From: a bacterium
GTDB taxonomy: Bacteria; Patescibacteriota; Minisyncoccia; Phycocordibacterales; Phycocordibacteraceae
DNA length: 64,000 nucleotides
Assembly: GCA_037200965.1 (NCBI GenBank)
Contig: JBBCGK010000001.1
Location: 224,001-288,000, forward strand
Reading direction: 5' to 3'
This document shows, in pieces, positions 3,800-39,247 of the stretch (the first letter of the stretch is position 1; each line of letters begins with the position of its first letter). The position numbers were made by a program, and so were the translations under genes. The notes beneath the pieces are model-generated. The model did no database searches. It had not been told where the DNA came from and was given only the letters and a program-made list of their open reading frames with translations.

Positions 3800-5254
3800 T
3801 CACTCGGGCCTTTTGGTCAACAGCGTGCCTTCCGGCCCGTCATCCACACGATATCCCCTGTTTTCGAGTTCCGTCCGAAGCTCGTCCGCGCGTTCGAAAT
3901 CCTTCGCTTTGCGGGCCTCGTCCCGCCCGGAAAGGAGTTCCCGGACTTCCTCCGGAAGCTCCGCGGGCGGGAGATCCGCCGCCTCCGCCGCCCGAAGCCC
4001 GAGCAGGGCATCGGCATCCTTGAGGAGTCCCCATTTCTCCTCGGCGGAATAGTCGTCATCCCTGAGCGTCTCCCAGAGAATGCCGAGCGCCTGGGGAGTC
4101 GCAAGATCGTCGTACATCGCCGCGACGAAACGGTCGCGGGCTTCCGACTTTTCCGTCTTTCCTTTGGATTCTTCCGCTACCTCGCGCGCGATCCGCCCGA
4201 GGCGCCCGAGCGCTTCGGCGGCCCCGGCGAGCGCCTCCCAGGAGAAGGAGAGCTGGGTGCGATAGTGCGCCTGATGGAAAAAATACCGGAGCGCGAGCGG
4301 AGGATAGCCGCGTTCGGTTACGTCGGAGAGAAGGTAGGTGTTGCCGAGCGATTTCGAAATCTTTTCGCCCGCGATCATGAGGTGCGCGTTATGAAGCCAG
4401 TACCTGACGAACGTGCGGCCGCTCGCTCCTTCCGACTGCGCGATCTCGTTGTTGTGGTGCACGGGGATGTGCTCGATGCCGCCCGAGTGCACGTCGATCT
4501 CGATACCGAGGAGCGCCCGCGACATGGCGGAACATTCGATGCTCCACCCCGGATTTCCGCGGCCCCAGGGAGAATCCCATTGTTGCAGATCGCGCGCGGT
4601 CGCGCTTCGCCACAGCACGAAATCATGCGGGTTCTTTTTTCCGGCGACCGCCTTCACGCGCGCGCCCTCCCTGAGTTCCACGGCCATGATATTGCCGAGC
4701 GCGCCGTAGCGGGAGAATTTCTCCGTATCGAAATAGGCGCCGTCGGCAAGCCTATAGACGAGGCCTTTTTGTTCGAGCGTCTGGATCATCGCGATCTGCT
4801 CCTTTATGTATTCGGTCGCCCGCGGAAAGAAAATATGCCCGGTATCGACATTGAGCGCCCGGATATCCCCGAGATACCGCTTGGTATAGCGCTCGGCGAC
4901 TTCGGCGGGAGAAACCCTGTCTCGCCTGGCGCCCACGCTCATCTTGTCTTCGCCAAGATCGGCGTCGTCGACGAGGTGCCCGACATCCGTGATATTGATG
5001 ACGCGGCGGACATGATACCCGGCAAAAAGAAGCGTGCGGCCGATGGTGTCGGCGAACACGGCAGCCCGAAGGTTTCCGATATGCTGCGGGCCGTATACGG
5101 TAGGACCGCACGAATAGAGGCTTGCGGTGCCGGGCTTAAGCGGAACGAAGCGCTCTTTCTTTCCGGAAAGGGTGTTGGTGAAGAAGATATTCGCTTCCTG
5201 AGGAGAGCGCGTGTTCGTGTCTTTCGCGGGCGAGAAGAAGGAAAACCACGCCAT
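3800..5254 (-). CDS. cysS: cysteinyl-tRNA synthetase
   Basis: 484 aa; class I HIGN-like (GPTVYGPQHIGN) and KMSKS (KISKSLGN) motifs, CysRS-specific Zn-site cysteines. Confidence 0.9.
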   Translation of the reverse strand: MAWFSFFSPAKDTNTRSPQEANIFFTNTLSGKKERFVPLKPGTASLYSCGPTVYGPQHIGNLRAAVFADTIGRTLLFAGYHVRRVINITDVGHLVDDADLGEDKMSVGARRDRVSPAEVAERYTKRYLGDIRALNVDTGHIFFPRATEYIKEQIAMIQTLEQKGLVYRLADGAYFDTEKFSRYGALGNIMAVELREGARVKAVAGKKNPHDFVLWRSATARDLQQWDSPWGRGNPGWSIECSAMSRALLGIEIDVHSGGIEHIPVHHNNEIAQSEGASGRTFVRYWLHNAHLMIAGEKISKSLGNTYLLSDVTERGYPPLALRYFFHQAHYRTQLSFSWEALAGAAEALGRLGRIAREVAEESKGKTEKSEARDRFVAAMYDDLATPQALGILWETLRDDDYSAEEKWGLLKDADALLGLRAAEAADLPPAELPEEVRELLSGRDEARKAKDFERADELRTELENRGYRVDDGPEGTLLTKRPE

Positions 5255-13692: not shown

Positions 13693-13830
13693 CTAGTCGC
13701 CCCACAAAATTGCGCCTTCGGAATTTATGGTTGTGACGGATACTTTTCCGACGGCATCGGTTAGCCGCACTTCCCCGGGCAGGGGAACTTTCCCGGTCAG
13801 GGGAGCGAAGACGATCTCAGAAAAATATGA
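13693..13830 (-). pseudogene. orphan 3' fragment of a type IV pilin gene (duplicate of 15921..16058)
   Basis: about 125 nt at about 85 percent identity to the 3' end of the pilin gene at 15921..16379; encodes ...PLTGKVPLPGEVRLTDAVGKVSVTTINSEGAILWGD; upstream part of the ORF is unrelated low-GC sequence. Confidence 0.6.
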
Positions 13831-13864
13831 AGAAGAGAGAAGTCCCCTGCCCTCCGCGAAACAT

Positions 13865-14401
13865 ATGAGCCTGACATTGCTAGTTGGTGTTATATTGGCC
13901 TGGATTATGGGAGTCTTTTCGCCTGAGGAGTATTTCGGCGCTATCAGGAACAATATACGCGGGAAACGCTACTTATACGCAACAATCAGGATATTTGCCG
14001 GTCTTGGCTCGCTGCTTATCTTTATTGGCGCGATTGTCGGAGCCTTCCATGCTTTTAACATATTTAACATACAAGTACACCAGAATAGAGTCGAGCTAGA
14101 CTCTTACTATCGCAAAACTACTGAATTAACGAGTACGGATGGCACCTATACGACGACATTTCGAATCTTTGTTCACACTCCTCCATACTGGACTCCTCCA
14201 AATCCGAAAAATCTGGAAGCAGGTTTTAACTTTTACTGGCTAGGTAACCCTCAGGCTGAATGCAGTGACCCAGCCTCAAAAGGATTCTCAGAAAAATATG
14301 CAGGCTCTTATTCATCCAGTACCAGGGAATACGAGATGACGTGCAGGACCTATAGCCCGGTTCTCGACAACGGGCGGCTGATCATGATCAGGGAAAACTA
14401 G
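13865..14401 (+). CDS. hypothetical membrane protein (low-GC cassette)
   Basis: 178 aa from internal Met; two N-terminal TM helices; region is markedly AT-richer than flanks. Confidence 0.35.
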   Translation: MSLTLLVGVILAWIMGVFSPEEYFGAIRNNIRGKRYLYATIRIFAGLGSLLIFIGAIVGAFHAFNIFNIQVHQNRVELDSYYRKTTELTSTDGTYTTTFRIFVHTPPYWTPPNPKNLEAGFNFYWLGNPQAECSDPASKGFSEKYAGSYSSSTREYEMTCRTYSPVLDNGRLIMIREN

Positions 14402-14417
14402 CGATAGGCCTCCCGAT

Positions 14418-14792
14418 TTAATACCCTGATACTGATCGCTGGGCCGTTTCGTAGTCGAAATCGCATAGTCGGATATCCCCTTCATACGCAGACAAGAGCG
14501 TGGCTGGCGTGCTGTCCGGGCTCTGTGCGCGCTTGAAGGTCGCAAAGGACAGCGCTATGTCCTGGGTCATCGAATTGCAGGAGGTACCGCTGTCATCCTC
14601 CACAAGGCACCAGTACTGCATGGCAGATGTGAATTTTGCCGCGGCTTTGACCGTACAGGCACGGTAGTCATTGTCTATATGGGCCCGCTTCTGGGAGTTG
14701 GCGGTATTCACATACCAACTGATCACCAAGATGACACAGATCAGTATCGCACCGTTGAGAACAAATATCTTATGAGTATTGAACCAGTTCAT
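14418..14792 (-). CDS. hypothetical membrane-anchored Cys-containing protein (low-GC cassette)
   Basis: start at Met21 (MNWFNTHKIFV...), one TM helix, several Cys. Confidence 0.35.
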   Translation of the reverse strand: MNWFNTHKIFVLNGAILICVILVISWYVNTANSQKRAHIDNDYRACTVKAAAKFTSAMQYWCLVEDDSGTSCNSMTQDIALSFATFKRAQSPDSTPATLLSAYEGDIRLCDFDYETAQRSVSGY

Positions 14793-14973
14793 AACGCAAG
14801 GTTGTTTTAGTACCAATAAACGCCCCAGAGCACCGCCCCGAATGCCAGACAACCTTGCGGGAAGCCAACACCGGGACGGTGCTTTGGGTGCAAGGTTGTC
14901 CTGTATGGGGGGTGTTCGTTATGAGCCTACTTCCCTCCCCTGGAGGGGTCAAGGGAGGGAACTGCACGGAACG

Positions 14974-15003
14974 AAAAAGACCGCCCGTACGGGCGGTCTT
15001 TTG
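14974..15003. terminator. bidirectional intrinsic terminator
   Basis: AAAAAGACCGCCCG-TAC-GGGCGGTCTTTT, flanked by A and T tracts; downstream of the minus-strand pilus/zeta operon. Confidence 0.55.
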
Positions 15004-15010
15004 CTGCGAC

Positions 15011-15190
15011 TTATTTCCGCTTTCCCTGCTCCATCACTTTACGCTGTTCCGCATTTGCCTCCCGCAATACCTGGCGCACCACTTTAACCTTGTCGGCAGA
15101 GGATCGTGAAAAGAACGCGGAGAAGTCGTTGTCCGCATGTCCCTTTTTCGCGCCGGACGAGCCAAAAAAGCCTCTTATGAAGTTGGTCAT
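15011..15190 (-). CDS. small basic protein (59 aa) translationally coupled to zeta-toxin-like gene
   Basis: ATG overlaps the zeta-like stop in an ATGA arrangement; MTNFIRGFFGSSGAKKGHADNDFSAFFSRSSADKVKVVRQVLREANAEQRKVMEQGKRK; no internal stops; below ORF-track size cutoff. Confidence 0.3.
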   Translation of the reverse strand: MTNFIRGFFGSSGAKKGHADNDFSAFFSRSSADKVKVVRQVLREANAEQRKVMEQGKRK

Positions 15191-15933
15191 ATAAGTACTG
15201 TATCTAGTTCTTCCACAGAGTAGCGTCCCCTGGTAAGGCGGTCAAGTTCCACGGAACTAACGTTCAAGTGAACATCCTCAGTGCCGTCTTCATAGTCTTT
15301 TATGAGCACGTTGAGCTCGACCGCCTTGCCAAACTGCTCTTTGACGGCCACGACATTTTCACGCGCACCCTTGAAAGAACGTATGAAGACATCCCTGGAC
15401 ACATGCCGTGACTCTGTCACCTCGCGAACTTTAGTAAACTCCCAGGCCTTCACCGGATCCTGAAATACGAACCATATTTCAACTAAGCGGCTCCGGGACA
15501 GCGAACGGCTGATATTCTCCGGGGCATTTCCGTAAGCGAACGTACCATCAAGTATGCAGTTGAGGTTCTTTTCGAGGGCATAGTCGTATAAGATGTTCAC
15601 CCCTTTATTCGCGGCGCTTTGGAAGAGGTGGGCATTTGCACCTGTATATCCGTCACAGAGCATGCGTATGTCGTCCGCATCTATGCGTATCGGCATATCC
15701 TTAAACCGTCTCATAAATCCTTTTGACACCTCAGTTTTGCCCGCCCCCGGCGAACCGGCCATAAACAGCGAAACCGGCTTATTCACGGGGCGACACGCGT
15801 CGGGGTGCGCGAACTTCTCTATGATTTCTTTTCTGTGGCTCTTAACAAAAGCAATCGCATCCCGTTCAATACGAGTTTCTTCTTCGGTCATCCCGGATAT
15901 CCTAACACTCTGTAGGCCTGTCACTTTCCCCAT
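15187..15933 (-). CDS. zeta-toxin-family P-loop kinase-like protein
   Basis: Walker A MAGSPGAGKTEV followed by IDADDIRMLCDGY (zeta/PezT D.D..R....Y pattern); 248 aa; overlaps pilin stop by 13 nt. Confidence 0.6.
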   Translation of the reverse strand: MGKVTGLQSVRISGMTEEETRIERDAIAFVKSHRKEIIEKFAHPDACRPVNKPVSLFMAGSPGAGKTEVSKGFMRRFKDMPIRIDADDIRMLCDGYTGANAHLFQSAANKGVNILYDYALEKNLNCILDGTFAYGNAPENISRSLSRSRLVEIWFVFQDPVKAWEFTKVREVTESRHVSRDVFIRSFKGARENVVAVKEQFGKAVELNVLIKDYEDGTEDVHLNVSSVELDRLTRGRYSVEELDTVLI

Positions 15934-16379
15934 AAAACCGCACCTTCTGAATTGATGGCTGTAATGGATATCTTCCCGGCGGCATCGGTTAACCGCACTT
16001 CCCCGGGCAGGGAAACTTTCCCGGTCAGGGGAGAGAAGACGACTTCGGCAAGTCCGGAGCGCAGGGCATCCGACTTCCCTTCCAGGATAATGTCTTCGCC
16101 CTCATGCCGTGAGAAGTAGCTGCCGCCCTCGAAAATGACGAAGCCGGAATCTCCGACGTAGACGCCATGCGCGCTGGGGCCGGTACAAACTTTCGCGGCA
16201 CACACGCCGTTAAGCGCTTGCGAGCGGGCATGCAGAAGCGCGATCCGAATCGTATCCTCGTCGTTTCTCTGAAGTGTCCTTTGATAGCTCTCGAGTCCGA
16301 CGATAAGCCCGATCGCGGAGATCGTGGCAACAAGCGCTATAACGATTAACAGTTCGACGAGCGTGAAGCCGCGAGGCAT
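15921..16379 (-). CDS. type IV pilin / pseudopilin with prepilin N-terminal cleavage-methylation motif
   Basis: MPRGFTLVELLIVIALVATI class III signal (G|FTLVELL), 152 aa. Confidence 0.75.
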   Translation of the reverse strand: MPRGFTLVELLIVIALVATISAIGLIVGLESYQRTLQRNDEDTIRIALLHARSQALNGVCAAKVCTGPSAHGVYVGDSGFVIFEGGSYFSRHEGEDIILEGKSDALRSGLAEVVFSPLTGKVSLPGEVRLTDAAGKISITAINSEGAVLWGK

Positions 16380-22870: not shown

Positions 22871-23764
22871 CTATCCTCCCGGAGCGCATACGCCCGAGAG
22901 CGTCTTCGCGCCCGGAACGCCGCAGCGGCTTGCGGAACATGCCCATGCGCTCATTGTCGGCGTATAGAGGCCGCAGGCGGCCTGCGTGTTGATTTTCGGA
23001 TCCTGAGCCGCACGAACGCACTGAGTATAGAGATTCTGGTCTTTAACGGAAGAGTCGCACCACCCTACCTTGCCCTGATTCCGTATGTACTGCCCCGAGC
23101 ACGGGTGCGTGAATGCGGCCGGGCAATTAAGACTGCCGAGCTTCGTCGTCGTGAGATTGATCTGCCAAAGTCCCCAAGAATAGCTCGGTCCCTTTCCCTT
23201 ATCGAGCTTGTCGGATCCGCTCGGGATCGCGGTTTGTCCGCCCGCGCTTTCGAGATTGCATACTTTCGACGCCACTTCCCCGTTTGCCGCGAAGCATGTT
23301 CCTTGGAGGCCTTGCACGCTGCAGGGGTTGTTCGCGTTTGAAGGCACCTTGCACGAACTGTTTCCCGAACTCGGCGTCGCGGAAACATTGGTCGCCGTTA
23401 CTGGTGCCCGCGGCGTGCTGAGCTCAAGACAGGCAGCCTCGCCCCCGGAAATGATCGCGTTCCACGGCCCGAACGTGCCGTTATAGAGCGCATTCATGAC
23501 CGTATTGACGATAAGCCATGCACCAAGGACGACCAGAAGACCGATTACCGTCTGCAGCACCACGGTTCGCGCCTGCTTCACGTTATCCGGACTCGCGGCG
23601 TTGGTTACGAACAGGAATCCCGCGTACACCAGCAGAAGCACGGCAAAAAAGACCGCCAGATACAGGCCGAATTTGAGAAGGTTCTGAACTACGGCGAAAA
23701 AACCGCCCCAGCCGCAGGCGCAATGCTGGCAGATCTCGGGGACGATGCTCCCGGTGAAGTCCAT
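22871..23764 (-). CDS. pilin-like two-TM N-terminal domain fused to Cys-rich extracellular domain
   Basis: N-terminal TM - short polar loop (NAASPDNVKQAR) - TM - LIVNTV architecture matches the pilin-like array at 36902..39247; C-terminal 200 aa has 20 Cys. Confidence 0.5.
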   Translation of the reverse strand: MDFTGSIVPEICQHCACGWGGFFAVVQNLLKFGLYLAVFFAVLLLVYAGFLFVTNAASPDNVKQARTVVLQTVIGLLVVLGAWLIVNTVMNALYNGTFGPWNAIISGGEAACLELSTPRAPVTATNVSATPSSGNSSCKVPSNANNPCSVQGLQGTCFAANGEVASKVCNLESAGGQTAIPSGSDKLDKGKGPSYSWGLWQINLTTTKLGSLNCPAAFTHPCSGQYIRNQGKVGWCDSSVKDQNLYTQCVRAAQDPKINTQAACGLYTPTMSAWACSASRCGVPGAKTLSGVCAPGG

Positions 23765-24528: not shown

Positions 24529-24600
24529 GGGTCCATAGTTTCAATGGTAAAACGCTTCTCTCCAAAAGAAGTATTGCTGGTTCGAGTCCAGCTGGGCCCG
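24529..24600 (+). tRNA. tRNA-Trp (anticodon CCA)
   Basis: acceptor GGGTCCA/TGGGCCC (one G-U), U8 A9, D-stem GTTT/AAAC, anticodon arm CTTCT-CTCCAAA-AGAAG, T-arm GCTGG-TTCGAGT-CCAGC, discriminator G. Confidence 0.8.
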
Positions 24601-24622
24601 CTAAAAGTGATACACTGAGCGC

Positions 24623-25024
24623 ATGGAAACTATTGCCGTACGTCTTACCGATGGGCAAGATTTACTGGTGGAAATCAAGGACGTAACCTTTAAACAGGAT
24701 ATCGAAGCGGGCGTTATTCTTTCCGGAGTCGGAAGTTTGAAGAAAGCGAAAATCCGTGTTCCGGTGATAAACGGTGAAGTAAAGTACATCGAACCACAGA
24801 ACCTAGAGATCGATGCGCTGCATGGAACAGTGTCAAAAAACGGTTGTCATGTGCATATTACTGTTTCTGATATTTCAGGAAACGCCTATGGAGGGCATAT
24901 AAAGGAAGGGTGTATCGTCCGGACTACATGCGAACTGGTGATAGGAATAGTGAAGAACACCCGCTTTAAGCGCACACTAGATCCCGCTACCGGATTTGAA
25001 GAGCTCGTAATCGAAACCGCTTAA
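24623..25024 (+). CDS. PPC/DUF296 domain protein
   Basis: 133 aa; pattern ...ILSGVGSL...ALHGTVSKNGCHVHITVSD..GNAYGGHIKEG typical of PPC (PF03479). Confidence 0.55.
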   Translation: METIAVRLTDGQDLLVEIKDVTFKQDIEAGVILSGVGSLKKAKIRVPVINGEVKYIEPQNLEIDALHGTVSKNGCHVHITVSDISGNAYGGHIKEGCIVRTTCELVIGIVKNTRFKRTLDPATGFEELVIETA

Positions 25025-26090
25025 ACCCCTCTTGTCCGAAACCAGAAATCATTCTTTATCTCTTCCGTAAGGCGATACGCATCGGCGTGGGAGAGGACGC
25101 CAAGATATGAATTAAAAGATGAAAGGACAGTTGTTTCACTTGTATTGCCTGTCCTAAATTCCGCTGCACGCTTCCGAAGCTTCCGGATGATTCTCTGTTT
25201 TGTCTTCCGGCGTAGGGCGATATGCCCGGGCAATACGACGTATCCGAGGAAGTCGATCCCTTGTCGATACGTGCGGATAAAGACTTTATCAGGATGAAGG
25301 GAGAGGTGAAGTCGTTCTTCAAGAAACGTGCCAATTTCGGGAATCAGACTCTCAAGATACGAACGGTCTCCTGACACGATTACGAAATCATCCGTATATC
25401 GCATATAATGTTTGACCCTAAGCCCATGCTTTATAAATTGGTCGAGCTCGTTCATATACACGTTGGCGAAAAGCTGGCTCGTAAGATTGCCGATCGGCAC
25501 TCCGTTCCTTGGCGTATCGTCCCCCCCCCCCCCCCCCCATTCAATCCGGCCGTATAGCTTTCGATAACTTCTTCGAGAAGCCAGAGAACTTCCGGATCGG
25601 CGATTTTCTTTCTGAGAATGCCGAGCAGTACCGCGTGATTGATGGTGTCGAAAAACTTCCGTACGTCGCACTTCAAGGCGAAACAAGGCCGCGTCCCGTT
25701 CGCACTTACCGCACGCAGCGAATGCTTCAAATATTCGACGCCTTTGTGCGTGCCCTTTCCTATCCGGCAGGAAAAAGAGGACGCTATAAAGGTCGGCTCG
25801 AAAACCGGATTGAGTATCTTAAAAATCGCATGGTGGAGTACGCGGTCGCGTACCGTCGCCTTATGTATGCGCCGTATCTTTGGGTCGCGGATCCAAAAAC
25901 CCCGGTACGGCCCGTGGCGGTAATACTTGCCGCGCAGCTCCCGAGCAAGTTTGAAAAGTTCATACTCGACGTTTTGCTCGAAAGCCGCCACGTCCGGTTT
26001 GCCGCGCTTATCGCGCTTAAAGATATCCCACGCCTCGAACAGGTTTTCTGGCGAGGTTATCGATCCGTATAAGTCCTTATATACCTTCAT
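25021..26090 (-). CDS. DGR-type reverse transcriptase, interrupted by a -1 frameshift in a poly-G tract
   Basis: Two overlapping ORFs (25452..26090 and 25021..25686) that together give a 356-aa RT: N-terminal fingers, IGNLTSQ (the I/LGxxxSQ motif diagnostic of DGR RTs), YTDD catalytic motif; frames differ by one nt at the homopolymer. Confidence 0.8.
25521..25538. repeat. homopolymer tract (18 C on plus = poly-G in RT coding strand)
   Basis: length 18 from ORF-track arithmetic (my visual count of the line suggested up to 22); 19 or 22 nt would put both RT halves in one frame. Confidence 0.8.
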
Positions 26091-26444
26091 ATGAATAGTG
26101 ACCTAGACATACCGATTTTCAAGAAGAGTTACGACCTGTATAAGATGTTCTACGGCTACCGCGCCGACGTGTCGAAGCAGGATCGATACACGATCTGGCA
26201 GCGTTCGGAGAATTCCATCCTCGACATCGTCGAGGCGATTCTGCTTGCAAGCCAGTCAAGTAAAGCGGAGAAACTTCCGATACTTGAGGGGGCGAGCGTG
26301 AAGCTCAACCTGGTACGGATTCTGGTTCGACTCACGAAGGACGTGAAAGCCATCGATAACAAGAAATACCTTGCGCTTGAAGCGAACGTTGACGAGATCG
26401 GCAGGATGCTTGGCGGATGGATCCGTTCGGCCAAGGAACGGTAG
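26091..26444 (+). CDS. avd: Avd-like four-helix-bundle protein (DGR accessory variability determinant family)
   Basis: 117 aa; C-terminal DEIGRMLGGWIRSAK matches the bAvd/four-helix-bundle family; start codon directly abuts the RT start (CAT|ATG). Confidence 0.7.
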   Translation: MNSDLDIPIFKKSYDLYKMFYGYRADVSKQDRYTIWQRSENSILDIVEAILLASQSSKAEKLPILEGASVKLNLVRILVRLTKDVKAIDNKKYLALEANVDEIGRMLGGWIRSAKER

Positions 26445-27276
26445 GAGAAATCCGCCGAGGAGGCGGATCTTCTTCCGGATAGAGAAACGACTGCCAGGCA
26501 GCGGCCAGACCGAGGTCGGAGACGCGGTAGCTGTCCCAGTAGGGGCTGACGTTGACGGACTCGGAGTCGACGCCGACATAGACGTGATTGCCGTCCGCGT
26601 CGAGACTGGACGTGCGAACGTAGAGACTCTTGAAGAGCCAAACGCCACGGACTTCGAAGAAGACCGTGATGAACCAGCTCGTCTCGGCGGCGTTCGGGAC
26701 GCGTTCGGTGTTCGAGGGCAGCAGGGTCTGTTCGCCCCAGGTTTTGCTCGTCGAACCCGTGACTTCCGTCTTCTTGTGGGCGAACCACCCGGAGCCGGTG
26801 AGATCGCTCTGCGCGAACCTCGCCTGCTCGTACCAGCCGCCGGTCTTGCTGGAGAAGAGCTTGGGCTTCAGGGCACGGATGGCCAGGAGCGCGAGCATCT
26901 GCGGCGAGTGCGGCATCAGGGCATAGCCAGCGGCCTTGAGCGCGTTCAGCGTCTCGACCGGCGGAATGCTGTCCGCGAGCGCTTCGATCTGCTGCGCGCT
27001 GTAGGCGATGTCCGGACGCTTCGCCATGATCTCTTCGGCGGTGATGAAGTCGCCGCCAAGGATGGAACGCGCGAGCGTGTAATCCGGCTGCTTTGCCGAA
27101 AGGCGCGTCACCAGGGCGACGAACCCTTCGTCGAATTCACCGCGGCGCCTGAAGAGGCGCTGGTGAGCTTCGTGATCGAGGGGAACATCGCTGCGAATGC
27201 GCGCGGCGGCGGATGCGATCATCTCGTCGAGGTGGTCGTGTTGGCCTGACGTGGCCGGGGATGCCGACATGGTCAT
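26332..27276 (-). CDS. hypothetical protein, candidate DGR target (unverified)
   Basis: 314-aa ORF upstream of RT on same strand; Gly/Trp-rich C-terminal region (TGGWYEQARF...GSGWFAHKK...); last about 37 codons are antisense to avd and look non-protein-like, so the true 3' end is uncertain. Confidence 0.4.
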   Translation of the reverse strand: MTMSASPATSGQHDHLDEMIASAAARIRSDVPLDHEAHQRLFRRRGEFDEGFVALVTRLSAKQPDYTLARSILGGDFITAEEIMAKRPDIAYSAQQIEALADSIPPVETLNALKAAGYALMPHSPQMLALLAIRALKPKLFSSKTGGWYEQARFAQSDLTGSGWFAHKKTEVTGSTSKTWGEQTLLPSNTERVPNAAETSWFITVFFEVRGVWLFKSLYVRTSSLDADGNHVYVGVDSESVNVSPYWDSYRVSDLGLAAAWQSFLYPEEDPPPRRISPTVPWPNGSIRQASCRSRQRSLQAQGISCYRWLSRPS

Positions 27277-27324
27277 ATTCCTTTTTCAATGCCCGAGTCG
27301 TCGGACTTGCGTCTTGCCTGTGTA

Positions 27325-27399
27325 AGGCGAGCTATTTACGGCCTAGTTGTAAAATGTTTCGACAGATACTGTCGAAAATAAGCCGTAAATAGCTCGCCT
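27325..27399. repeat. perfect 18-bp-arm palindrome with nested 9-bp hairpin
   Basis: AGGCGAGCTATTTACGGC ... GCCGTAAATAGCTCGCCT with inner TTTCGACAG-ATA-CTGTCGAAA; in AT-rich intergenic region upstream of the 26332..27276 gene. Confidence 0.7.
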
Positions 27400-27573
27400 C
27401 ACGAGTTCTTGGTTATCAAAGAGCCGATTGCGGTCAAGCGTACACGATATACGATATATTGTCAAGTATGCATTTAGTACGGACCGGCAGTGTGTACTTG
27501 CCGTGTAGTCCGGAAACAACAGACGCCCGACTCCAATCCTTCGGGCGACTGTCGTCAGGCATCGTATTCGCTC

Positions 27574-34784: not shown

Positions 34785-34856
34785 GGCCCGGTGGTGAAGG
34801 GGTAACACGACGATCTGCAAAATCGTTATGCGCGGGTTCGAGTCCCGCCCGGGCCT
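34785..34856 (+). tRNA. tRNA-Cys (anticodon GCA)
   Basis: acceptor GGCCCGG/CCGGGCC, anticodon arm ACGAT-CTGCAAA-ATCGT, T-arm GCGGG-TTCGAGT-CCCGC, discriminator U. Confidence 0.8.
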
Positions 34857-34869
34857 CAAGTCGTATCAT

Positions 34870-34958
34870 GCCGAGGTGGCGGAATGGTAGACGCACTTCG
34901 CTTAAAACGAAGAGAGGACCTAAAAACCCTCATGTGAGTTCGAGTCTCACCCTCGGCA
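34870..34958 (+). tRNA. tRNA-Leu (anticodon TAA), long variable arm
   Basis: acceptor GCCGAGG/CCTCGGC, anticodon arm CTTCG-CTTAAAA-CGAAG, T-arm GTGAG-TTCGAGT-CTCAC; variable region about 21 nt with an unusually large loop. Confidence 0.7.
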
Positions 34959-35002
34959 CAGAAATCAGAAACTCCCGCATGCGCGGGAGTTTCTGATTTC
35001 TG
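34959..35002. other. perfect 20-bp hairpin between convergent tRNA genes
   Basis: CAGAAATCAGAAACTCCCGC-ATG-GCGGGAGTTTCTGATTTCTG; abuts tRNA-Leu(TAA) 3' end and the tRNA-Lys 3' end. Confidence 0.7.
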
Positions 35003-35075
35003 TGCGCCTACCTGGGCTCGAACCAGGGACCGTCTCCTTAAGAGGGAGCTGCTCTACCAGCTGAGCTATAGGCGC
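35003..35075 (-). tRNA. tRNA-Lys (anticodon CTT)
   Basis: reverse complement gives GCGCCTA-TA-GCTCAGCTGGTAGAGC-A-GCTCC-CTCTTAA-GGAGA-CGGTC-CCTGG-TTCGAGC-CCAGG-TAGGCGC-A; one G.A mismatch in anticodon stem. Confidence 0.75.
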
Positions 35076-35141
35076 GTCACCGAATCGTAGCAAACGGCGA
35101 TCGTTTTTCAAAGCGAAGTACGGTAGCATCAGCTGGTGCGC

Positions 35142-35223
35142 GCCGGGGTGGTGAAACTGGTAGACACACTAGCCTTAGGAGCTAGCCCTTCACAGGATGG
35201 AGGTTCGAGTCCTCTCCCCGGCA
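35142..35223 (+). tRNA. tRNA-Leu (anticodon TAG)
   Basis: acceptor GCCGGGG/CCCCGGC, anticodon arm CTAGC-CTTAGGA-GCTAG, 13-nt variable arm, T-arm GGAGG-TTCGAGT-CCTCT. Confidence 0.75.
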
Positions 35224-35329
35224 CAACAGCTCGTCCCGCGGCCGTTTTCACGGCATCTTGACTTTTCCTACGATTCCTGTATATTGGTACGCAGTACCAA
35301 ATTGAACCTTGTCAGGAAAGGGCAAACTG

Positions 35330-36882: not shown

Positions 36883-36901
36883 TTAATCCGCATCCCGCCC
36901 G

Positions 36902-37177
36902 CTAGGATGTAAACTTCGGTACCGACGGAATGCCGAACGTGCCCGTAATGACGCCCAATATGCCAAACACGCCGAAAATGATGACGAGGCCGACCAAGCC
37001 CCAGAGAATGGAACTCCTTCCCTCTTCCCGCGCGGTCTCGTCCCCGGCATTCGCAACGAACTTGAAGACGCCCCAGAGGAAGATGAGAAATGCCGCCGCA
37101 GCGATAAGCATGAGGAGCGGATTCACGATCTGCACCACGACGGTCTTGAGGAAATTATTCAATACGTCCATAGGCAT
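36902..37177 (-). CDS. T4SS-type (TrbC/VirB2-like) small two-TM pilin family protein, paralog 1
   Basis: TM - GDETAREEGR loop - TM - GILGVITG; member of tandem array. Confidence 0.55.
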   Translation of the reverse strand: MPMDVLNNFLKTVVVQIVNPLLMLIAAAAFLIFLWGVFKFVANAGDETAREEGRSSILWGLVGLVIIFGVFGILGVITGTFGIPSVPKFTS

Positions 37178-37185
37178 AAGAATAA

Positions 37186-37222
37186 CACAAAGCCCCGGCC
37201 AGCGGCCGGGGCTTTGTGTTAA
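37186..37222. terminator. bidirectional hairpin between pilin paralogs
   Basis: CACAAAGCCCCGGCC-AGC-GGCCGGGGCTTTGTG. Confidence 0.45.
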
Positions 37223-37236
37223 AACGCCGGGAGAAA

Positions 37237-37590
37237 CTAGAAGTCTGCCTGCGGAAGCGGAGGCGTCGCGTTATTGGTCGAGAAGGTACCTACGAGGATA
37301 TTCACGAGGCCCCAGATCGAGACCATAACGAAGAAGCCGATAAGGCCGTAGAGCATGAGTTTCTTGCCCTTTTCCTTCGCGTCTTCGTCGTTCGCCCCGA
37401 TGATGAAGACCTGGAAAGCGCCCCAGATGAAGACGATGAAGGCGACGGCAAAGAGCACCGGCACCAGGACGTTATTGATGATATTGATGACCGTGGTACC
37501 CACATCGGATACGCTTGAGATAGTGGCGGCACCGGCAAGGAGCGGCGTCAAAAGTGCGATTGCGGCAAACGGCGCGAGGTATTTCTTCAT
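37237..37590 (-). CDS. pilin-like two-TM protein, paralog 2 (signal peptide + core)
   Basis: signal peptide, core VLVPVLFAVAFIVFIWGAFQVFIIGANDEDAKEKGKKLMLYGLIGFFVMVSIWGLVNIL. Confidence 0.6.
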   Translation of the reverse strand: MKKYLAPFAAIALLTPLLAGAATISSVSDVGTTVINIINNVLVPVLFAVAFIVFIWGAFQVFIIGANDEDAKEKGKKLMLYGLIGFFVMVSIWGLVNILVGTFSTNNATPPLPQADF

Positions 37591-37699
37591 AATGGTGATA
37601 TTCGTATAATGGCTCCCCGGCGTTGAGCGGAGTTCCCCTTATTCTAGCTTGCCTTCGCCCCAGGGCAAGCCGCGTCCCTGATTCGTGTGGATAAGAACC

Positions 37700-38122
37700 T
37701 TAAAGGGTCGGGTAGTCGGGCCGCGCGTATCCTCCAAGGCCGAGCGTATTGGAGAGGATATTGACCAGGCCCCACAGCGAGAACATCACCACGAAACCGA
37801 TCAGCCCCCAGAGGATGAACTGCCTTCCTTCCTTGCGCTTGTCCTCGTCCGCACCGCCCACGATGAAGTAGTTGAAGACGCCCCAGAGGAATACAAGGAA
37901 GGCGATGGTAAACAGGATGGGTACGAGAATATTGTTGATGACCACGAGCACAAGATCGCCGTAGTGGCCGAAGGCGCCCGCATTAACAACCGACACCGTC
38001 GGCCCCGGGCTTATCTGCGGAGTCCCGTCTCCCGTGACAGGATCGATCGCCGCAGCCGCATAGGAACAAAGCGGCGCCCCAAGAACCAGAAGCGCGATCA
38101 GGAAAGGAAGATATCGTTTCAT
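37700..38122 (-). CDS. pilin-like two-TM protein, paralog 3
   Basis: signal peptide, core ILVPILFTIAFLVFLWGVFNYFIVGGADEDKRKEGRQFILWGLIGFVVMFSLWGLVNIL. Confidence 0.6.
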   Translation of the reverse strand: MKRYLPFLIALLVLGAPLCSYAAAAIDPVTGDGTPQISPGPTVSVVNAGAFGHYGDLVLVVINNILVPILFTIAFLVFLWGVFNYFIVGGADEDKRKEGRQFILWGLIGFVVMFSLWGLVNILSNTLGLGGYARPDYPTL

Positions 38123-38128
38123 ACGGGA

Positions 38129-38446
38129 TTAATAAGAAGTCGGATAAGCCGGATGGCGGTACCCGCCAAGATCGAACGTGTTAACGAGTATGTTGACCAG
38201 CCCCCATACCGAAAGCATGACGAAGAATCCGACGAGGCCGTACAGGATATACGTGCGGCCCGTCTCGCGTTTCGTTTCGTCGTCCGCGCCCAGTATGAAG
38301 TATTGGAAGACGCCCCAGATGAAGACGATGAAGGCGACGGCGAAAACGAGGGGAACGGCGACATTGTTGATGAGGCCGAGAATAGTACCGGCGATGCCCT
38401 GGAGGTTGCCGCAGTTTCCTACGCACAGCGAGAATGAGAATCCCAT
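38129..38446 (-). CDS. pilin-like two-TM protein, paralog 4
   Basis: core VAVPLVFAVAFIVFIWGVFQYFILGADDETKRETGRTYILYGLVGFFVMLSVWGLVNIL. Confidence 0.6.
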   Translation of the reverse strand: MGFSFSLCVGNCGNLQGIAGTILGLINNVAVPLVFAVAFIVFIWGVFQYFILGADDETKRETGRTYILYGLVGFFVMLSVWGLVNILVNTFDLGGYRHPAYPTSY

Positions 38447-38457
38447 ATGGTTTAGTA

Positions 38458-38703
38458 TTATAGCGCGATTATGCTAAGGCCGATGCGTATCAATCCCCAG
38501 ACCCCGAACATGACCACAAGCCCGATCAGCCCCCAGAGGATGAACTGCCTTCCTTCCTTGCGCTTGTCCTCGTCCGCGCCGCCCACGATGAAGTAGTTGA
38601 AGACGCCCCAGAGGAATGCGAATCCCGCAAGCGCAAAGACGACAGGAATGACAATCCCGCCTATGATGGCTACGATCGAATTGACGAGTTCGGCAAAGGT
38701 CAT
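38458..38703 (-). CDS. pilin-like two-TM protein, paralog 5
   Basis: start at internal Met (MTFAELV...); core identical over about 32 aa to paralog 3 and shares a 95-nt near-identical DNA stretch with it. Confidence 0.55.
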   Translation of the reverse strand: MTFAELVNSIVAIIGGIVIPVVFALAGFAFLWGVFNYFIVGGADEDKRKEGRQFILWGLIGLVVMFGVWGLIRIGLSIIAL

Positions 38704-38704
38704 A

Positions 38705-39247
38705 TCAGGTGCCAAGCGCCTGTACCGTCGCCTGGATTCCGAGCGAGATCGCCTTGGCGCCAAGGAGAATGAGCGCTCCGACGACCGTCCACAGGAGCGC
38801 CTCGCGCGCCTCCTTTATTTTTTCTTCCGCTCCCTGCGCGGTCACGAATTTGAAACCTACGTAGACGAGCATCAAGACGATGACGATGCCGCCGATCTGT
38901 ATCACGAGGTCGAGGACGGCATTGAGGAAATCCGGAATCGTCGAAAAGCCGAGAGGATTCGTAAGGCCGCTTCCGCCTCCCCCGCCGCCTGGAACCGTTC
39001 CCGCCGGACGGCATACTCCCGCCACGCAGGTATCAGTGCCGGTGCAGGCAGGCTTGCAGGCTGAACCGCCGGGAACGGTACCGGCCGCTTGGCATTTGCC
39101 GTTGACGCATGTATCGGTACCGGTGCAAGCAGGAAGGCAGGCGGAGTCGGCGGCCTGCGCAGGAGCAGGTACGAGGATAAACACCATGAGAAACGCGACC
39201 GTGGCCGGAACAATAAAATACTTGCCTGTAGCGTTCATGATTTTCAT
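38705..39247 (-). CDS. pilin-like two-TM domain (C-terminal) fused to N-terminal Cys-rich repeat domain, paralog 6
   Basis: signal peptide, two copies of ACxPACTGTDTCVxGxCxxAGTVPGG, Gly run, then TM - GAEEKIKEAR loop - TM. Confidence 0.5.
   Translation of the reverse strand: MKIMNATGKYFIVPATVAFLMVFILVPAPAQAADSACLPACTGTDTCVNGKCQAAGTVPGGSACKPACTGTDTCVAGVCRPAGTVPGGGGGGSGLTNPLGFSTIPDFLNAVLDLVIQIGGIVIVLMLVYVGFKFVTAQGAEEKIKEAREALLWTVVGALILLGAKAISLGIQATVQALGT

Follow-up and report, generated by a model that had tools for sequence, protein, structure and literature searches.

How should a diversity-generating retroelement (DGR) be read when its reverse transcriptase (RT) gene is split over two reading frames, its accessory gene (avd) diverges from the RT gene, a plausible target gene lies alongside, and no pair of template repeat (TR) and variable repeat (VR) can be recognized? 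The question is raised by a cassette at positions 25021-27276 of a 64,000-nucleotide stretch of DNA (hereafter, the window) from a bacterium of the Phycocordibacteraceae, in the Patescibacteriota (assembly GCA_037200965.1, contig JBBCGK010000001.1, positions 224,001 to 288,000 of the forward strand). Our analysis indicates that the cassette is very probably a chromosomal DGR of the Patescibacteria type, made up of a target gene with its VR, a TR, an opposite-strand avd and an RT gene, that has been disabled by a deletion, and whose RT gene contains a repeat tract that would act as a phase switch. The element is best described as a recently disabled Patescibacteria DGR of architecture B3 in which the RT still carries the proposed repeat-tract switch of its family, in a poly-G version. 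The cassette as such is a decayed element of a known kind, and the hypermutable RT tract is the new part. The three genes on which the argument turns are the following.

27276..26332, minus strand: target open reading frame (ORF), 314 aa, with its last 113 nt antisense to avd
26091..26444, plus strand: avd, 117 aa, matching PF22296 (bAvd) and divergent from the RT gene with zero spacing
26090..25021, minus strand: RT gene, in two frames (ORFs 25452..26090 and 25021..25686), both halves matching Pfam RVT_1

RT, Avd and target are orthologous to parts of many intact DGRs of the same layout. The repaired translation of the RT gene encodes both VPIGNLTSQ and RYTDDF, combining a motif of the [I/L/V]GxxxSQ type (PIGNLTSQ) with YTDD, as expected of a DGR RT; group II intron RTs have QGxxxSP where DGR RTs have [I/L/V]GxxxSQ. 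The repaired RT aligns with Patescibacteria RTs of 349-358 aa and has thousands of Patescibacteria homologues at 57-68% identity, and loci with adenine-specific TR/VR pairs encode RTs homologous to it at 46-68% identity. Judged by its sequence, the window RT is by family a DGR RT, in agreement with a preliminary description of the window that had recognized a split RT with these motifs at this place. Retron, Abi, DRT and group II identities were also considered and rejected, with the NCBIfam models, those for retron and Abi RTs included, all far below their cut-offs and giving sub-threshold generic RT matches only; PADLOC returned no specific assignment for the window RT.

The same description had placed a 117-aa Avd at the very next base, and here too it was right. 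The avd gene starts at the base adjoining the RT start on the opposite strand (CAT/ATG), and its product matches Pfam bAvd PF22296 with 59.6 bits (cut-off 40) and NCBIfam DivGenRetAVD NF033474 with 72.6 bits, just below the cut-off of 80. Homologues of this Avd reach 86% identity, and those fetched at 81-85% sit in intact DGRs. The window Avd is a bona fide DGR Avd, a four-helix-bundle accessory protein, rather than a generic member of the 23S-IVS family.

The 314-aa gene is the DGR target, as the preliminary description had guessed while allowing that the target might lie outside the cassette; the target is the adjacent gene. Its product is homologous (26-59% identity) to proteins of 260-266 aa that end in LGLASARKF and a stop codon, the window protein being 312-314 aa long, and these homologues carry VRs in L001, L002, L086, L089 and other loci related to the window. 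The protein has a C-type-lectin fold, displaying the VR at its C-terminus, and also resembles many C-type lectins, whereas its N-terminal helical domain has no Pfam or NCBIfam match. An 81-nt imperfect palindrome at 27322-27402, with perfect arms of 17 bp (GGCGAGCTATTTACGGC and GCCGTAAATAGCTCGCC), lies between a 104-aa ORF and the target start, and may be a terminator or an operator.

We compared the window with L001, the locus of one RT homologue, and with 80 more loci from species-representative genomes. In nearly all of these relatives the order, in RT sense, is a target gene with the VR at its 3' end, a spacer of ~370 nt, the TR, a short hairpin, avd on the opposite strand and the RT gene. 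The TR lies ~400-520 nt upstream of the RT start (80 loci), and a TR/VR pair with 80% or more of its mismatches at an A of the TR is present in more than 55 of the 80 loci. L001 itself presents 16 of 17 TR/VR mismatches at A and the same CAT/ATG junction as the window, a zero-spacing junction that is often present in related loci; relatives have TR/VR pairs with 13-16 of 14-18 mismatches at A. Homologues with 27-77% identity to the window Avd occupy the same position, in the same orientation, in ~75 of the 80 related loci. This layout is architecture B3, TR-(avd)-RT, of Wu et al. (2018, NAR 46:11, PMC5758913), which accounts for 90% of their Candidate Phyla Radiation (CPR) set and hardly occurs elsewhere. 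In the window the target, avd and the RT gene have the order and orientation of B3 and the TR 3' flank is in place, with the TR itself deleted; the cassette is a B3 member by descent, not a complete example.

A TR/VR pair, which the preliminary description had not been able to locate by eye, is absent from the whole 64-kb window according to a repeat finder and to self-blastn at word size 7, and a scan that treated A (or T) as a wildcard, comparing TR candidates from 21-31 kb with all 64 kb, yielded no pair either. What the window does contain is one repeat copy, in the following setting.

26494..26604, minus strand: surviving repeat copy, VR-like, with a diversified body and with target-gene sequence (YVRTSS) as its 5' flank
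26494-26515, minus strand: invariant block resembling an initiation of mutagenic homing (IMH) element, the last 22 nt of the repeat copy, CCTCGGTCTGGCCGCTGCCTGG in target sense
26469..26493, minus strand: TR-type 3' flank, CAGTCGTTTCTCTATCCGGAAGAAG in target sense, which follows the TR, not the VR, in relatives
26449..26469, both strands: GC-rich hairpin, AATCCGCC-GAGGA-GGCGGATC, directly after the avd stop codon

We aligned the window copy with 12 TR/VR pairs and with its three nearest relatives. On its 5' side it has the sequence found before VRs (..YVRTSS..) and not the one found before TRs. Of 26 columns in which TRs retain 22-26 adenines and VRs 4-16, it retains adenine in 14. Its 3' flank runs through CAGTCGTTTCTCTATCCGG, the GC-rich hairpin and the antisense avd stop codon, which is the TR-type order, and the VR-type 3' flank (AAG, the stop codon a few bases on, and a CTTGA..CTTG element) is absent from the window. 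The copy stands at the TR position relative to avd, with an offset of 1486 against 1478, 1484 and 1492 for the TRs of the relatives, and the distance from the end of avd to the target body is ~50 nt, against ~530-580 nt in relatives. Compared with these loci the window lacks ~490 bp, comprising the VR 3' flank with the target stop codon, the spacer, and the TR up to a shared block of ~22 nt. A TR/VR pair cannot be found in the window because a single repeat copy is left. Among the possibilities that the preliminary description had listed, the one that gains support is that of a degenerate system, with one repeat copy remaining and the TR lost.

The hairpin is a general feature of these loci. 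A GC-rich hairpin of 8-10 bp lies between the TR end and the avd stop codon in every aligned locus (L001-L048, L086, L089, L094), and its sequence changes from locus to locus yet always pairs, that is, it covaries. In its sequence it looks like a terminator on both strands, and it may define the 3' end of the TR RNA.

The search for repeats also returned a 124-nt direct repeat (13700-13823 and 15928-16051, 84% identity), which was rejected as a TR/VR pair: mismatches are found at all four bases, and the repeat stems from a prepilin-type gene (15921..16379, minus strand) whose 3' end has been duplicated 2.2 kb away. Between the two copies the G+C content is ~0.51, and a P-loop protein ORF (15187..15933, minus strand) appears zeta-toxin-like by eye. 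The region 13700-16051 resembles an insertion with a duplicated gene end on either side.

The arrangement of the single copy would be accounted for by a deletion through recombination or replication slippage between two direct repeats, the VR and the TR, with the crossover in the ~22-nt block that they share at their 3' ends. Its consequence for the target gene is visible as two segments.

26494..27276, minus strand: native part of the target, 261 codons, with an N-terminal helical domain and a C-terminal C-type-lectin-fold domain ending in the VR
26332..26493, minus strand: extension of the target by read-through, ~53 codons, covering the TR-type flank, the hairpin and the antisense strand of avd

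At the boundary between them the window protein reads LGLAAAW and continues with QSFLYPEE, where the homologues end in ARKF and a stop codon. The target runs for ~53 codons into antisense avd because its native stop codon was lost. The preliminary description had noted that the 3' end of the target is antisense to avd, and the overlap does amount to 113 nt; what it missed is that this antisense run is the scar of the VR-TR deletion. The target protein would carry an unnatural C-terminal tail, and a transcription stop at the hairpin, in the target direction, would leave the target mRNA with no stop codon. The VR would be frozen because loss of the TR would leave no adenine-bearing template, and adenine-directed rewriting would have stopped. 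The RT, with its tract in frame, and Avd could still be made, and the cassette is probably unable to rewrite its target gene now.

The second lesion of the cassette is of a different nature. The RT gene is divided by a homopolymer into two parts.

25539..26090, minus strand: RT 5' part, from the start codon (26088-26090) to the tract, with N-terminal motifs up to KCDVRKFFD and LLEEVIESY; RVT_1 residues 71-167
25521..25538, minus strand: G18 tract (C18 on the plus strand), from nucleotide 553 of the RT gene
25021..25520, minus strand: RT 3' part, with VPIGNLTSQ, YTDD, the thumb region and the stop codon; RVT_1 residues 55-150

The G18 tract is the sole homopolymer of at least 9 nt in the window, and G16 or G19 in its place restores a continuous RT of 355 or 356 aa. 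The RT frameshift sits in a hypermutable repeat tract, another point that the preliminary description missed. A Logan contig of the same strain (L084, from SRR28211700) has G19 and an intact RT of 356 aa, with 0 other differences over 4258 nt. The other two same-strain contigs both begin 44 nt from the tract, and these assemblies therefore break there.

Tracts at the homologous position occur in the RT genes of the relatives. The tract falls in the loop that joins the LLxEIIxSY helix to the G[VI]PIGNLTSQ motif; this loop has 11 residues in most RT homologues, and the nearest relatives of the window have it enlarged and of low complexity (RERERE.., GGGG). At the DNA level these expansions are (GA)13 in L001, (GA)5-11 in six other genome loci and G12 in L145, and in the three closest Avd clusters (GA)n starts at nucleotide 552-555 of the RT gene, compared with 553 for the window tract. 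Contigs from replicate samples that encode the same Avd differ in the number of GA repeats (16/17/18, 14/15/17 and 11/12/14/15), 16 being the sole in-frame number in the first of these groups. Across six strain groups the tracts differ by 1-4 GA units, and their flanks (up to 400 nt per side) have 0-2 mismatches.

We also scanned JGI/ENA metagenome contigs for (GA) repeats of at least 9 units followed by codons for PIGNLTSQ, ignoring the reading frame. The scan gave 47 contigs, with the RT in frame in about 6, out of frame in 39 and with no frame call in 2. Adding or removing 1-2 units turns 24 of the 25 out-of-frame alleles that are complete and non-redundant into a full-length, stop-free ORF of at least 330 codons; the tract is therefore their only lesion, and both gene halves have been kept intact. 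Furthermore, 24 of the 37 simple repeats in 622 kb of related loci fall within the TR-avd-RT cassette.

An ORF-internal tract whose length varies among genomes that are otherwise the same, and which shifts the frame as it does so, is what characterizes a slipped-strand contingency locus, and at the level of sequence these data suggest a phase switch on DGR RTs. The tract would turn RT synthesis on and off by slipped-strand mispairing, and the frameshift in the window would represent the OFF state of the switch (or a miscounted homopolymer) rather than ordinary gene decay. We lean slightly towards the broader view that many Patescibacteria DGR RTs carry a hypermutable (GA)n or poly-G tract at a fixed site just upstream of IGxxxSQ, some of them with a second tract at the avd/RT overlap, as a stochastic on/off switch of hypermutation that is OFF in most natural cells, the window showing the poly-G form on an element that has lost its template. 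In the literature searched, Paul et al. (2017, Nat Microbiol 2:17045) excepted, we found no paper linking DGR RTs to repeat tracts or phase variation.

Repeat tracts were also observed at other sites of these cassettes. Eleven loci (L050, L051, L053, L057, L060, L065, L067, L068, L071, L073 and L081), on a more distant RT branch (46-51% identity), have a G9-G11 tract at the overlapping 5' ends of avd and the RT gene, ~10-40 nt upstream of the RT match and near locus position 3964-3991. The tract is translated as GGG in the frame of the RT and as PPP in that of avd, and only in about half of these loci is the upstream ATG in frame with the RT body; it may be a second switch, possibly hitting avd and the RT at once. 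Other repeats in or near DGR cassettes, of the types (GT)6-8, (CT)10, (GA)9-11 and G10, are placed between avd and the RT gene, at the 3' end of the RT gene or between avd and the TR (L059 391-406, L078 3956-3967, L072 849-868, L064 911-920, L008 5049-5070, L011 5082-5099, L016 2581-2600 and L039 3630-3639), and the G10 tract of L064 is where the RT match ends.

Between samples, relatives with an OFF RT consensus presented no differences in the VR. L094 differs from L095 and L096 by 17 positions in ~95 nt, mostly at 3-nt spacing, within the target and ~330-420 nt upstream of the VR, the contigs being otherwise identical. This cluster was considered as a trace of DGR activity and rejected: the differences between L094 and L095 are mostly at third positions and look like allelic recombination.

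Several points weigh against the reading of the cassette as a deleted DGR with a phase-variable RT. The deletion has no second instance among ~80 relatives, which makes it a single event. Among the relatives in which no pair had been detected (L012, L027, L037, L043, L061, L069 and L078), no further collapsed locus emerged; four of these seven have pairs with more non-A mismatches, and three have no pair nearby. The search for a TR covered 64 kb of a 960-kb contig, and we infer the recombination mechanism from the junction alone. The difference between G18 and G19 may be a homopolymer calling error, and both lengths may come from one read set handled by two assembly pipelines. Phase variation is read from assembly consensus sequences, many of them at low coverage (3-17x), and the in-frame alleles, about 6 of 45, fall short of the third that chance alone would give.

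The alternative that survives best, improbable as we consider it, is that both defects are technical, the assembler having collapsed VR and TR and the homopolymer having been miscalled, so that the genome has an intact, ordinary DGR. VR/TR pairs are repeats and VRs are heterogeneous, both of which are hard for assemblers; long G runs are likewise hard to sequence, and at this tract two assemblies break 44 nt away and two others differ (18 against 19). The two halves of this alternative fare differently. An identical Avd is encoded on four contigs, namely those of GCA_037975565.1 and GCA_015655515.1 and the Logan contigs of SRR28211700 and SRR10968228, which are different runs. All four have the same fused junction, with 0 differences over 1854 nt and an identical VR, and none of them breaks at the junction. 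Logan assemblies use k-mers of k = 31. We take the VR-TR deletion, as read from these assembled sequences, to be real and not an assembly artefact because the block of ~22 identical nt that VR and TR share at the crossover is shorter than k, so that no false join would arise there, and because no contig breaks at the junction. Moreover, the Avd search returned no orphan TR-bearing contig with the same Avd. A technical collapse is therefore unlikely. A homopolymer miscount is quite possible, but it is secondary, altering the ON/OFF call alone and not the loss of the TR.

We give somewhat less credence to a functional element, served by a remote TR elsewhere in the genome or with an RT-Avd pair serving other targets. 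RT and avd bear no lesion other than the tract, and some DGRs do have remote targets (Wu et al. 2018, PMC5758913). In related loci, however, the TR always adjoins avd, and a remote TR is unlikely because the exact place of the TR is occupied in the window by the VR-like copy. Nothing VR-like was found elsewhere in the 64-kb window, and the VR is identical in all four contigs, which also agrees, as weak evidence, with the stopped rewriting of the deletion reading.

Lower again in our estimation is self-templating, in which the target mRNA would unite the VR with the 3' RNA elements of the TR, RT-Avd would copy the VR with adenine errors and the cDNA would home back, so that one repeat would serve as both VR and TR. 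The TR-type 3' flank and the hairpin are intact and directly follow the VR on the target transcript, and an in-frame RT allele exists. Against this, the four contigs present no VR differences, the adenine content of the VR falls at the upper end of what VRs have, where one-way adenine loss would predict depletion, and the VR-side 3' element, present in all relatives, is deleted. We know of no self-templating DGR.

Finally, a local inversion of avd or the RT gene, which the preliminary description had entertained together with a novel layout on the grounds that avd is reversed relative to the Bordetella phage order (target-avd-TR-RT, one strand), is refuted, because the same layout, often with zero spacing too, is the family norm, found in L001 and in ~75 of 80 related loci with working TR/VR pairs and published as an architecture of its own (PMC5758913); an inversion may have been an ancient event at the root of the Patescibacteria clade.

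The deleted B3 element is flanked on one side by a tRNA-Trp gene and a PCC-domain gene and on the other by the 104-aa ORF, L33 and ClpB. The tRNA-Trp gene (24529-24601) is ~420 nt past the RT stop codon, with the PCC-domain gene alone between them, and it is the only Rfam match over 22-30 kb; four further tRNA genes (Cys, Leu, Lys, Leu) are clustered at 34785-35224. The G+C content of the RT/avd segment is 0.46-0.51, against ~0.60 in its surroundings. Taken together with the tRNA genes, the low G+C of RT and avd suggests that the cassette may have come by horizontal transfer. Farther along the window, at 36900-38800, five paralogous genes stand in tandem, encoding small membrane proteins of 91-140 aa (repeat families D1 and D2); their products look like the N-terminal membrane segment of ORF 22871..23764, which has a weak Pfam T4SS_pilin match.

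If the proposed switch is real, a tract within the RT gene would provide a simple, heritable and reversible control over when a DGR fires, by which a small fraction of the population would diversify a surface-binding protein and the rest would remain as they are. The below-average activity that Roux et al. (2021, PMC8144416) report for the Patescibacteria clade of DGRs would then be easier to understand. Surveys restricted to intact RT genes would miss the OFF alleles. The window would, in addition, be a clean example of how a DGR dies, with one recombination between its own direct repeats removing the template and damaging the target.

Among known systems, the closest are the B3 DGRs of Patescibacteria (CPR; PMC5758913), which correspond to DGR clade 2 of Roux et al. 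(2021, PMC8144416). The window shares with them the RT clade and the Avd, an avd gene running against TR and RT, one neighbouring target whose C-terminus holds the VR, and a place in a Patescibacteria chromosome; it differs in that the TR is missing, the VR is fused to the TR 3' flank, the target stop codon is lost and the RT is cut by G18. With the prototype DGR of Bordetella phage BPP-1 (mtd-avd-TR-brt) it has in common an IGxxxSQ-type motif, YxDD, a four-helix-bundle Avd and a variable protein of C-type-lectin fold with a C-terminal VR, as well as the invariant 3' block of VR and TR, seen in the relatives of the window. The two differ in the orientation of avd, in being phage-encoded and host-encoded, respectively, in the N-terminal domains of their targets, which are unrelated, and in the template, which is absent in the window. 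The preliminary description had suggested predicting the fold of the 314-aa protein, and the C-type-lectin fold relates it to DGR variable proteins of solved structure, TvpA (2Y3C), Mtd (1YU0) and TaqVP (5VF4), and to the C-terminal domain of Legionella Lcl (8Q4E), at only 9-17% identity.

For the tract, the appropriate comparison is with the contingency loci of Neisseria, Haemophilus, Campylobacter and Mycobacterium, in which poly-G tracts or short repeats within ORFs cause phase variation by slipped-strand mispairing (for example PMC5084427, PMC8355987, PMC10334774). The DGR RTs and these loci have in common a long tract, homopolymeric or of dinucleotides, inside the ORF, a tract length that is polymorphic in otherwise identical genomes, a frame that is toggled by one unit and two intact gene halves. 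Contingency loci switch surface or restriction-modification genes, whereas here, in a Patescibacteria host and as suggested by sequence, the gene that would be switched is the RT of a hypermutation system.

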